DNA of 64,000 nucleotides. Source: Octopus vulgaris (Eukaryota). Where the stretch lies: NCBI GenBank assembly GCA_951406725.2, contig OX597832.1:66836001-66900000 (forward strand), in the 5' to 3' direction. The notes under the pieces are model-generated. The model did no database searches, was not told the DNA's origin, and was given only the letters and a program-made list of their open reading frames with translations. The number at the start of each line of letters is the position of its first letter. Positions within the stretch are counted from its first letter, which is position 1. Positions 7,153-57,486 of this stretch are shown here, piece after piece. The translations under genes and the position numbers were made by a program.

Positions 7153-7355
7153 TATGTTTTACTTATTTGAATATTCATTTTTTCTTAAGAAGAAATTTTG
7201 TACATGTTGTGTGTAATGATATTTACGAGTGAATTACTTCACAAGCAGAGAAATAAGGGGAGATAATTGGTTATCGTTATTATTTTTATTTTTATGGGTA
7301 AGGGAGATAACTGTTCAGCTTTCGGTAATGGGAGGGGAATATATATGTACAGACA

Positions 7356-22400: not shown

Positions 22401-22629
22401 ATATGAGTATATGTATATTTTTATTAATATTTAGCAGAAGCAACAGAGTGACTCAAGGTCCGAGATTTTCCTGTGTAAGTACTTATCAAACATTTATGTT
22501 TGAGTAGGCACAATGCAAGAAACACTTAGACTTGGGGCACGAACTTGCTACTGTTAAAATATATATATATATATATAGATATAGATATATATATAGATAT
22601 ATATATATATACATAAATATATACACACA

Positions 22630-22772
22630 ATTGCAGCGTGGAAGGTGTTTATAAGCCATTTAAGAAACACACAAAACCGTTAGATTCACTTCAAAATTTT
22701 AATTTAATTTGTCGAAATATTTTCGTCGCTTTGAGATCGCGACCTGTTCACTGACAAAACTTCGTACTGTTA
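22630..22772 (-). mobile_element. Short repeat with G3-C8 hammerhead variant (22708-22758); second copy at 41055-41200 (+)
   Basis: Reverse-complement match to 41055-41200. Minus strand reads TTTGTCA-GTGAACA-G-GTCGC-loop-GCGAC-GAA-AATATT-T-CGACAAA. Confidence 0.65.
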
Positions 22773-22789
22773 TATATATTATATGTATA

Positions 22790-23007
22790 TATCTATTTGT
22801 GCTTGAGGCGCTCGTCCACCTCCACCGCTTGACAACCGGTGTTGGTGTTATTTACGTCATCGTAAATTAGCGGTTCGGCTAAAGGGTACGATATAATAGT
22901 TACCAGGCTAAGAATAAAGTATAACTCCTCGGGTCAATGTGTTCGATTTAAAACAAACTTCAAAGCGGTACTCTTGCATGGCCGCAGTCAAAGGATTAAA
23001 ACAAGTA
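22790..23007 (+). mobile_element. SINE family A 3' half
   Basis: Matches the 3' halves at 950-1175 and 57320-57486. Confidence 0.7.
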
Positions 23008-23272
23008 GATCATATCATGGTGGCCTACTCATAGCGGCTTTTCACAATAATTTGGAAGGACCCAGCCTACGACATGAGAATAGTCCTAGCCTTTTTCAAT
23101 TGAAAGTTGATATATGTTAACCCCATGCTGGTAAATATTTACCTAAGTGGCGCTTGTGCATACAAACACGAACTTAGACCCGAAACCTCGTTGTGCCATG
23201 TTCAGTACCGCTCCGTAAGAACTTGAGAAGATGTATATATGTATACACGACCACGCACACTCACACACACAC

Positions 23273-23754: not shown

Positions 23755-24763
23755 ATAATAAATATAAGAGAGTGGTCACTATATTGCTCACTCTAGCACC
23801 AGTTAATCCAAAAGGTTTCAACCACGAAAATACATGCTTACCATGAAAGTCAGTACGATTGTTAGCTCACACGGACAGGGCAAATAAAAAATAACAAAAA
23901 TACAGATTATTTTGGGACAATTGTTTCGCTATTAATGAATTAAATGTAATTTTACTTACAAAAAAATCCATTTGTACGTCAGCCAAGACTATCTGGATGA
24001 AATCCACTCAATCACACGCCAGATTTTACCATAACGATAAATACGCGTGTGGTTCAATGATTACATCCGACGTTATAATTCAAATGCCCCAACCAACAGC
24101 GCGCCAAATCACGGAAAACAAATAAGCATTTAGAAATAAATGCAGCATAATTATAATTAATTAATAAGGGTGAGAAAATTAGATATAATTTAATAGTATA
24201 TTTATTCAACACCAAGTGGCCTAGTGCTTCGAGAAACCTGGATTATTATAATATTTTATAACATATTATAATATTTTTACAAAATAAATATAAGAGAGTG
24301 GTCACTATATCACTCTAGCACCAGTTAATCCAAAAGGTTTCAACCACGAAAATACATGCTTACCATGAAAGTCAGTATTGTTATCACACGGACAGGGCAA
24401 ATAAAAAATAACAAAAATACAGATTATTTTGGGACAATTGTTTCGCTATTAATGAATTAAATGTAATTTTACTTACAAAAAATCCATTTGTAGCTCGTCA
24501 GCCAAGACTATCTGGATGAAATCCACTCAATCACACGCCAGATTTTACCATAACGATAAATACATGTATTTTCGTGGTTGAAACCTTTGGATTAACTGGT
24601 GCTAGAGTGAGCAATATAGTGACCACTCTCTTATATTTATTTTGTAAAAATATTATAATATGTTATAAAATATATAATAATCCAGGTTTCTCGAAGCACT
24701 AGGCCACTTGGTGTTGAATAAATATACTATTAAATTAGTATCTAATTCTCTCACCCTTATTAA

Positions 24764-39238: not shown

Positions 39239-39303
39239 GTGTATATATATTCATGTATATATATATTCATATATATATATATATATATATATTATATAGT
39301 TAA

Positions 39304-39453
39304 GTTAAGTTAAACATCCTATCACCACATCCCACCGATGCAATGATGAGACGGGTCACAGAAGTTGTTTGTATACAAGAATACAAACCTACTCTCAACC
39401 GAAAATCCGAATGGAGTAACATCCAGATCCCATTCAGGAGGATCATTCTATAA
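39304..39453 (+). pseudogene. Penelope-like GIY-YIG C-terminal scrap next to (TA)n
   Basis: Manual translation VKLNILSPHPTDAMMRRVTEVVCIQEYKPTLNRKSEWSN..*, fitting the R..E...I....P.LN.K.EW pattern. Confidence 0.6.
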
Positions 39454-40028
39454 CCACCCTTCTCTCTCGTTTACATGTAATCCTTACATACACGTTGCAA
39501 TGCGTGGTGCTAAAACACTTATGTGCAGTTATACATAACCGTATAAGCGTACTTTGTTTGTTACGTATGTGCGTGTGTGGTGCTAAATAAATGCACATGC
39601 ATGTGTATGTATGGGTGTATGTATTTATTGTATATGTATGCGTTTATGCATATATATATAATAATAAATAAAAGAGCAGATCGGTTAATATAATGCATGT
39701 TCGATTTTTAACCGTTGCCCTTGAATACTGTGTCATATATTTTGTATGTATGTGTGTGTGTGCGTATGCATGTTTATGCGTGTGTGTGCATGTGTGTGTG
39801 CATGTGTGTGTGTGCGCGCGTGTGTGTGTATGTGTGTAATAGGTCATATGTATGTTGAAGTGGATAAGCATATATGAGTATATAATTTAAGGTTATAAGT
39901 GTATTTATGAGTATGTCTATATGATTGTGTGTACTTGTTTATATGTATATGGTTATATGTGCACTGTTGCACCTAAACGTTGTATCCATTCACCGTTAGA
40001 TGATGATGAGAGGAACAAACACACACCC

Positions 40029-40065
<37 letters not shown>

Positions 40066-40152
40066 CGTCTATACAAACATATATGTGTGTATATATATAT
40101 ACAACCTTCAACAAGGTAACAGTCATGTACACAACTTAGACGGGCACATACC

Positions 40153-40387
40153 TATTTCTTTATTACCCACAAGGGGCTAAACATATAAGGGACAAACAAG
40201 GACAGACATAGGTATTAAGTCGATTACATCGAGCCCAGTGCGTAACTGGTGCTTAATTTATCGACCCCAAAAGGATGAAAGGCAAAGTCGACCTCGGCGG
40301 AATTTGAACTCAGAACGTAACGGCAGACCAAATACCGCAAAGCATTTCGCCCAGCGTGCTAATGCTTCTGCCAGCTCGCCGCCTTCA
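40153..40387 (-). mobile_element. SINE family B, full length, 13-bp TSD (ACGGRCACATACC at 40140-40152 and 40388-40400)
   Basis: tRNA-like head GGCGGCGAGCTGGCAGAA with GAGTTCAAATTCC B-box; TSD visible. Confidence 0.88.
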
Positions 40388-41069
40388 ACGGACACATACC
40401 AGTACACGGACATACGTTCACATGCACATACACATGTACACACACACACAGACGCGTCTGCCCGTTCTCCTAGATACTCACATGCATACGTAGCACATAA
40501 GTACAAACATACATACATACCTGCGTATGTGCATACACACGTACATACGCACGTACATGTACACACACACATACATACGCACATGCATACGTGCGCATAT
40601 ACATATATACGCACATGCGTACGTACGTGCATACACACATACATACATACATAAACACATACATACGTATATATATATATATATATATAACCTGGGGGGA
40701 AAAAAGAGGTAAGTAATAGTAAAACAAAAGTTTTGTGATATAGAGATAAGTGACTGATAATAGGTCTTAGAGTTTTGTCGTGGGGGTGAGGGTCGTAAAT
40801 CACTTCCTAGCTTCGGCGGGGGAGGTTGAAATTTGATATTGTTGTGATGAGTGGTCAGTCTACATCTATCCCTCACTACAGGTTCATAGCTTTCAGTTTA
40901 TAGTGTGTGTGTGCGTGCATATACACACATACATATATATACATACATACACACGTGCGTACATACATACATGCATGCTTACATACATGCGTGCATACAT
41001 ACATACACACATACATACGTACATATATATAACGAACTAACTGTTACTTTCTCAGATGCAGCACGGATT

Positions 41070-41120
41070 TTTGACAGTGAACAGGTCGCGGTCTTAAAGC
41101 GGCGAAAATATTTTGACAAA
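41070..41120 (+). ncRNA. Hammerhead-like fold, G3-C8 core variant
   Basis: TTTGACA-GTGAACA-G-GTCGC-ggtcttaaa-GCGGC-GAA-AATATT-T-TGACAAA. Confidence 0.55.
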
Positions 41121-41304
41121 TTAAACTTAAATGTTGAAGTGAATCGAACGGCTTTTGTGTGTTTCTTAAATGGCTTACTAACACCTTCCATGCTGCAATT
41201 GTTTTCGTTTCAGCACACGATCTCAGATCAAATCACTTGCTATGCAGGTACATCTCCCTATATTATATATATATATATATACATATATATTATTTATATA
41301 TATG

Positions 41305-49741: not shown

Positions 49742-51080
<1,339 letters not shown>

Positions 51081-57267: not shown

Positions 57268-57318
<51 letters not shown>

Positions 57319-57486
57319 TGTATGTTTGTGTGTCTGTGTTTGTCCCCCTAGCATTGCTTGACAACCGATGCTGGTGTGTTTATATCCCCGTCACTTAGCG
57401 GTTCGGGGTCGAGTTGCTCGACTAAAGGCGGTGTTCCAGCATGGCCGCAGTCAAATGGCTGAAACAAGTAAAAGAGAGTAAAGAGT
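57110..57486 (+). mobile_element. SINE family A with internal (TA)n
   Basis: GCGCAGGAGTGGCTGTGTGGTAAG...GGTTCAGTCCC...GAAAGAAGCCCGTCG-(TA)n-...GCATGGCCGCAGTCAAATG. Confidence 0.88.

Follow-up and report, generated by a model that had tools for sequence, protein, structure and literature searches.

A repeat family of Octopus vulgaris carries a hammerhead motif in which the 3-8 pair is inverted. G3-C8 is a real, family-wide variant of the minimal hammerhead of Penelope-like elements (PLEs): the family has G3-C8 in place of the canonical letters C3 and G8. In hammerheads, the 3-8 pair belongs to the active site, where the 2'-OH of position 8 plays a role (in part after PMC8495972). The motif lies in the pseudo-LTR of a putative Neptune-type PLE. 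With moderate confidence, it is read here as a weak, dimer- or protein-assisted G3-C8 hammerhead that is likely self-cleaving after its UUU triplet.

Two copies in the window

The window, a stretch of 64,000 nucleotides, contains two copies of the motif, on opposite strands. The features to which the text refers are the following.

22708..22758, minus strand: G3-C8 minimal type I hammerhead motif, copy 1 (read from the sequence)
22758-22752, minus strand: 5' arm of stem I, copy 1
22751-22745, minus strand: core GTGAACA, copy 1
22744, minus strand: extra G after the core, copy 1
22743-22739 with 22729-22725, minus strand: stem II, copy 1
22724-22722, minus strand: GAA, copy 1
22721-22716, minus strand: AATATT, copy 1
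22715, minus strand: U17, copy 1
22714-22708, minus strand: 3' arm of stem I with one mismatch, copy 1
Between 22715 and 22714, minus strand: cut of copy 1, predicted from sequence alone
22628..22769, minus strand: short copy of the family's pseudo-LTR, flanked by TA-rich tracts
41070..41120, plus strand: G3-C8 hammerhead motif, copy 2, of a different subfamily
41077-41083, plus strand: core, copy 2
Between 41113 and 41114, plus strand: cut of copy 2, likewise predicted
39297..41257, plus strand: 5'-truncated PLE copy bearing the copy 2 motif
39310..39453, plus strand: remnant of the parent PLE's GIY-YIG endonuclease (C-terminal end)
41034..41055, plus strand: candidate branch-point-like and 3' splice-site-like signal directly 5' of the copy 2 motif
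41170..41257, plus strand: first codons of the PLE ORF, which recur in the pseudo-LTR, with the ATG at 41170

Both copies show the same order: stem I, GTGAACA, the extra G, a 5-bp stem II, GAA, AATATT, U17 and the 3' arm of stem I. The core GTGAACA can be read at both places and on both strands for which the original prediction had given it. The same prediction placed the stem I mismatches of the two copies at different positions, and this is indeed the case. The single mismatch of copy 1 is the pair adjoining the predicted cut site; that of copy 2 is the third pair, and copy 2 additionally has one G.U in stem II. The consensus that had been built from the two copies is matched in full by genomic copies, among them L023, L065 and L157. 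The two window copies themselves, bearing these mismatches, may be inert.

The two copies had also been called independent, which turned out to be wrong. They are 88.9% identical over 144 nt and are paralogous insertions of one repeat family, that of the putative Neptune-type PLE. Because they share one master lineage, the two window copies alone cannot show selection; the argument for selection is supplied instead by covariation in sister families. Of the two 3' ends seen in the family, the pseudo-LTR copy around copy 1 has the shorter one (without the tail). Copy 2 represents the 3' end of a truncated element that reaches the longer 3' end (41257), is interrupted by at least one unrelated insertion near 40160-40380, and encodes the end of the GIY-YIG endonuclease in its 5' part. 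Head-to-tail tandem units that each bear a hammerhead, as in a non-LTR retrozyme, are not seen in the window: each of the two copies stands alone, with 18 kb between them and in opposite orientations.

Some further features were observed in the window. Directly 5' of copy 1, positions 22770-23015 belong to another dispersed repeat, which is 67-80% alike to 928-1152, 50539-50711 and 57293-57470. Positions 401-525 form a near-perfect inverted repeat with arms of ~57 bp, possibly a MITE, and gave the top Rfam match, under its gathering score. In a loose scan, canonical CUGAnGA cores with a 4-bp stem II were found at 24501 (minus strand) and 56453 (plus strand); these may be other hammerheads or chance matches.

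The parent element and the extent of the swap

The parent PLE that had been proposed for the motif exists, as an RT-endonuclease ORF was recovered from copies of the family. These yield frames that stay open for as many as 1,025 aa and comprise an RT region, a CX3CXXC linker and an endonuclease. The GIY-YIG domain is matched with E=1.7e-4 and 22.2 bits, slightly below the cut-off of 22.6. Pfam gave no family on the RT part of the translation of the element; homologues of the ORF product are named reverse transcriptase by their source. The copies of the family sit in (TA)n, often as inverted pairs. Within the pseudo-LTR, the motif follows the endonuclease stop at a distance of about 1.0-1.5 kb. 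In tandem copies it is found a second time, 5' of the ORF, with 56 nt between the predicted cut and the start of the ORF. With the ORF beginning this far downstream and the frames through the motif closed by stops, a protein constraint on the motif was rejected.

A 3' splice-site-like signal stands ~15 nt before the motif, and the branch-point-like and acceptor-like signals just 5' of stem I suggest that splicing may take place there. Two 3' ends of the family, about 55 nt apart, lie inside the start of the ORF (window 22628 and 41257). They resemble the PLE "tail" that is tied to two RT start sites in the available text of PMC11167929. According to the available part of PMC8557442, the element has the following in common with C-terminal EN+ PLEs of the Neptune clade: the RT, the Cys-rich linker (CX3CXXC, within the CX2-5CXXC of the clade), the C-terminal GIY-YIG and the (TA)n targets, and also the tandem and inverted pseudo-LTRs and the optional tail. 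The parent is thus probably a Neptune-type PLE, a clade label that rests on these features, the tree being one without named references. As a side observation, a PLE insertion at L114 is flanked on the minus strand by two mutually alike hydrophobic open frames (380 and 218 aa), which look like tandem membrane-receptor genes.

A protein of a sister element is 99% identical to one that is assigned to Octopus vulgaris by its source. The genome (2.8 Gb in 227 contigs) was searched with a 20-nt exact pattern having G at position 3, with the same pattern having C at this position, and with the backwards pattern as control. The G3 pattern gave 6,861 exact matches and the backwards control 0, and C8 is present in 98 of the 100 G3 matches listed (of 6,861). 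The C3 pattern was found 21 times, all 21 with C8 (0/21 with G8); these copies are single-site decay. A second sample consisted of 30 loci chosen by their 3' sequence alone. The core is kept in 20 of these loci and is G3-C8 in every one of the 20, while the other 10 are truncated, deleted or inverted at the core. That the swapped core is a family trait and not decay, as had been proposed, is therefore borne out by the 6,861 G3 against 21 C3 matches and by the loci that keep the core. A C3-G8 subfamily within the G3-C8 family was sought and rejected: apart from the 21 C3 matches just described, none with G8, there is no C3 among the 100 listed of the 280 copies that deviate at position 8.

G3-C8 is common to at least three subfamilies that differ in loop II, copies with long open ORFs included. 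In the contigs of all four of four sequencing runs (four organism labels), the core shows no change at 5% or more; such contigs do not reveal RNA ends, and a search for expression listed no RNA records. U4 G5 A6, A9 and G12 A13 A14 are all in place in the motif. Stem II has G10.1-C11.1 plus one extra nucleotide after position 9. A15.1-U16.1, the NUH triplet and the palindromic stem III are found as well, in the form of AAUAUU followed by U17. These other core positions, the 7-bp stem I and the 5-bp stem II are intact across subfamilies in which loop II and the flanks have changed.

Sister families and the origin of the swap

Sister family B has C3-G8 at the same place. This family is very young, is 57-58% identical in the RT and stands as sister of the G3-C8 family in the tree, with a support of 98/96. 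Its motif shows compensated changes in stems II and III compared to the G3-C8 family. Position 9 is C in the young copies of family B and A in the older ones (L176, L182, L187 and L190). Since the youngest sister family has C9, the core constraint is loose in this clade. The distant relative L164 likewise has C9. Family B (L152-L154, L159 and L160, for example L153:2772-6701 and 7218-7266) is further characterized by many near-identical open frames of ~1,310 aa, with a long Asn/Ser-rich insertion before the RT.

A related pattern that excludes G3/C8 gave 1,935 genomic matches, mostly canonical among the 100 matches listed. L180, one of these matches, agrees with the G3-C8 family in four pairs of stem I and in the 5' strand of stem II, yet its core is C3-G8. 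Among metagenomic relatives, with a protein identity of 33-50%, the motif was found behind the ORF in 5/15 loci, two of them with C3-G8 (L161 and L162) and three with U3-A8 (L164, L166 and L167); the motifs of L161 and L167 were recognized by visual inspection of the flank. Most of the 10/15 loci without the motif are cut short or lack the 3' flank. The motif of L161 (4966-5017) apparently has U15.1-A16.1, not A15.1-U16.1, within its palindromic stem III.

Hand-picked family representatives and both window copies were combined in an alignment of 17 rows. The 3-8 pair is Watson-Crick in all 17 (CG in 9, GC in 5, UA in 3, unpaired in 0), and stem II is 100% paired in the alignment cells with letters. 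The covariation score of the alignment is 0.461, compared to 0.201 when shuffled and at most 0.133 when slid. For stems I and III, the counts are lowered by a partial misalignment of L162, L166 and L167. The five G3-C8 rows represent one lineage, and the swap counts as a single event. In the tree, which is midpoint-rooted and has many open forks, G3-C8 is apparently derived within a clade of C3-G8 and U3-A8. A swap that arose in a single event could be inherited without selection.

A possible trace of how the swap arose is found at position 8. This position is not C in 280 copies; the 100 of these that are listed comprise 45 with T, 39 with G and 16 with A. The background spectrum was taken from non-CpG C and G in 96 genomic copies only and consists of 61 transitions, 25 changes of the C>A type and 9 of the C>G type. 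Compared to this background, G8 is ~4-fold in excess (39 of the 100 deviants listed vs 9/95 expected, Fisher p=2e-6). The G3-G8 copies (L206-L265) occur in all loop II subfamilies. An older G3-G8 subfamily is not supported, as the 39 G8 copies have a median divergence of 6.3% vs 7.4% for 25 T8 copies. The excess hints that elements without the 3-8 pair transposed too. The G3-G8 copies may be relics of a stepwise path that were shuffled between subfamilies, they may be small lineages that transposed without the pair, or they may reflect a mutation hotspot. That a working natural G3-C8 hammerhead was reached from C3-G8 via an unpaired G3-G8 step, the copies of which would be those still in excess in the genome, with cleavage tuned down and not lost, is a tentative proposal and rather unlikely. 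If it were true, the family would preserve every step by which a pair in a ribozyme active site was compensated.

Cleavage and comparison with known hammerheads

For the self-cleaving G3-C8 hammerhead, the following course is proposed. Two transcripts, or the two pseudo-LTRs of a tandem, would pair through AAUAUU and thereby form stem III; as AAUAUU is self-complementary, it would allow such a dimer, the formation of which may be helped by the protein of the element. The 2'-OH of C8 would then stand in for the 2'-OH of G8. Only a minority of the RNAs would be cut, by which tandem or read-through transcripts would be trimmed, and most insertions would be copied from uncut RNA. Against activity stands the uncut motif, which thousands of copies, most of the family, retain. 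According to the available text of PMC4209133, cleavage by minimal PLE hammerheads is weak and requires a dimer or a closed stem III. For a lizard PLE, the accessible part of PMC11167929 reports that cleavage needs the protein, that uncut RNA is the main insertion substrate, and that an engineered C3G/G8C double mutant regains part of the cleavage activity.

For truncated copies with TA flanks, the 5' junctions were tallied by hand, with +1 being the first base after the predicted cut. The 120 rows were reduced to 109 loci by dropping four within-list duplicates, five rows shared between lists and two of three identical rows. Three junctions lie left of -10, 14 at -9 to -2, 18 at -1 to +2, 53 at +3 to +12 and 21 at +13 to +20. 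The junction rate steps up at the predicted cut, from 14 in the 8 nt directly before it to 18 in 3 nt; the p of 5e-4 for this step is uncorrected and inflated by the under-detection of positions far from the anchor. A spike of junctions is not present, with 18 in 3 nt vs 53 in the next 10 nt (p=0.37). In a control window further 3' (33 loci), the junctions likewise cluster at the anchor, from which it follows that edge and microhomology bias is real. The junction step is explained equally well if a part of the templates is cleaved, by AT microhomology, or if the RT stalls at the hairpin. In the folding predictions (ViennaRNA, with tertiary contacts outside the model), G3 pairs with U17 with a probability of 0.67-0.71 in three of four monomers, thereby extending stem I. 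This pairing resembles the C3-G17 trap discussed in the available text of PMC3884650.

The predicted G3.U17 pairing and the missing spike of 5' ends at the site, together with the excess of G3-G8 copies and the single origin of the swap, would fit a hammerhead descendant that is catalytically dead or irrelevant. Drift would then have brought the swap to fixation in a single successful master lineage, with the pseudo-LTR carrying it into new copies. Hammerhead mutants without effect on insertion in vitro (PMC11167929, available text) and Naiad PLEs that proliferate while lacking canonical hammerheads (PMC8557442, available text) point the same way, and this alternative is a serious possibility, although clearly the less probable one. 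It is improbable, however, that drift alone would bring about two transversions that restore exactly the 3-8 pair. The intact stems and other core positions in subfamilies with altered loop II and flanks also argue against it, as does the Watson-Crick pair in every row of the alignment.

The fold could also serve a purpose other than catalysis, for instance in protein binding or as a folding signal, beside a putative intron end in the pseudo-LTR and the start of the ORF, with the 3-8 pair being structural. The position of the motif, between the 3' splice-site-like signal and the ATG at the distances given above, would suit such a role, and Cervera and de la Pena allow for functions other than cleavage in the available text of PMC4209133. 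The conserved G5, A6, G12, A13 and A14 and the cleavable H17, in elements that are only 33-58% alike in protein, nevertheless fit catalysis better, and a purely structural role is considered quite improbable. A chance look-alike, or a canonical hammerhead decayed in two copies, is scarcely credible: Rfam gave no hammerhead among the best 150 of 163 matches at E<=1 in the window, and the loose scan finds other hammerhead-like matches there, but the match counts (6,861 vs 21 for C3 and 0 for the backwards control), the expected position in the PLE, the direct sequence homology to canonical motifs and the covariation over 17 rows refute it.

The self-cleaving hammerhead thus remains the preferred reading. 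With canonical sister families in one genome, a matched set of C3-G8, G3-C8, G3-G8 and C9 motifs is at hand, which lets one ask how much cleavage a Penelope element needs. If the G3-C8 motif does not cut, it would be a clean case of a ribozyme fold that is kept without catalysis.

To our knowledge, inversion of the 3-8 pair is known only from laboratory mutants. The survey of Lünse 2017 is reportedly the largest of PLE hammerhead variants. No natural G3-C8 was found in the literature searched, which lay outside Lünse 2017, Przybilski and Hammann 2007 and supplements. The usual search descriptors (CUGAnGA, as in the available part of PMC8557442) would miss the G3-C8 motif.

The octopus motif is similar to the min-HHR of metazoan PLEs (Cervera and de la Pena 2014, PMC4209133, as far as the available text goes) in its pseudo-LTR site, the extra nucleotide between 9 and 10.1, G10.1-C11.1, the short palindromic stem III that implies a dimer, and the thousands of solo copies. 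The intron would end just before helix I, as it does in the D. virilis element of the same source. In contrast to the min-HHR described there, the octopus family has G3-C8 and not C3-G8, and its stem I has 7 bp instead of 4-5. The sole natural 3-8 change reported in the available text of PMC4209133 is U3-A8. Natural U3-A8 hammerheads are described by Perreault 2011 (PMC3088659) and for the Schistosoma PLE Cercyon (PMC4209133), both sources being available in part; like these, the octopus motif shows a natural compensatory change at the 3-8 tertiary pair. Whereas U3-A8 keeps the pyrimidine-purine order and takes two transitions, G3-C8 inverts this order and takes two transversions. G3-C8 itself has been described as the engineered C3G/G8C mutant, which gives partial rescue, also in a PLE hammerhead (available parts of PMC11167929, PMC8495972 and PMC3884650). 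These engineered mutants have C17, whereas the octopus family has U17. The octopus family has the same core letters as the engineered mutant, but in a natural motif present in several thousand copies.
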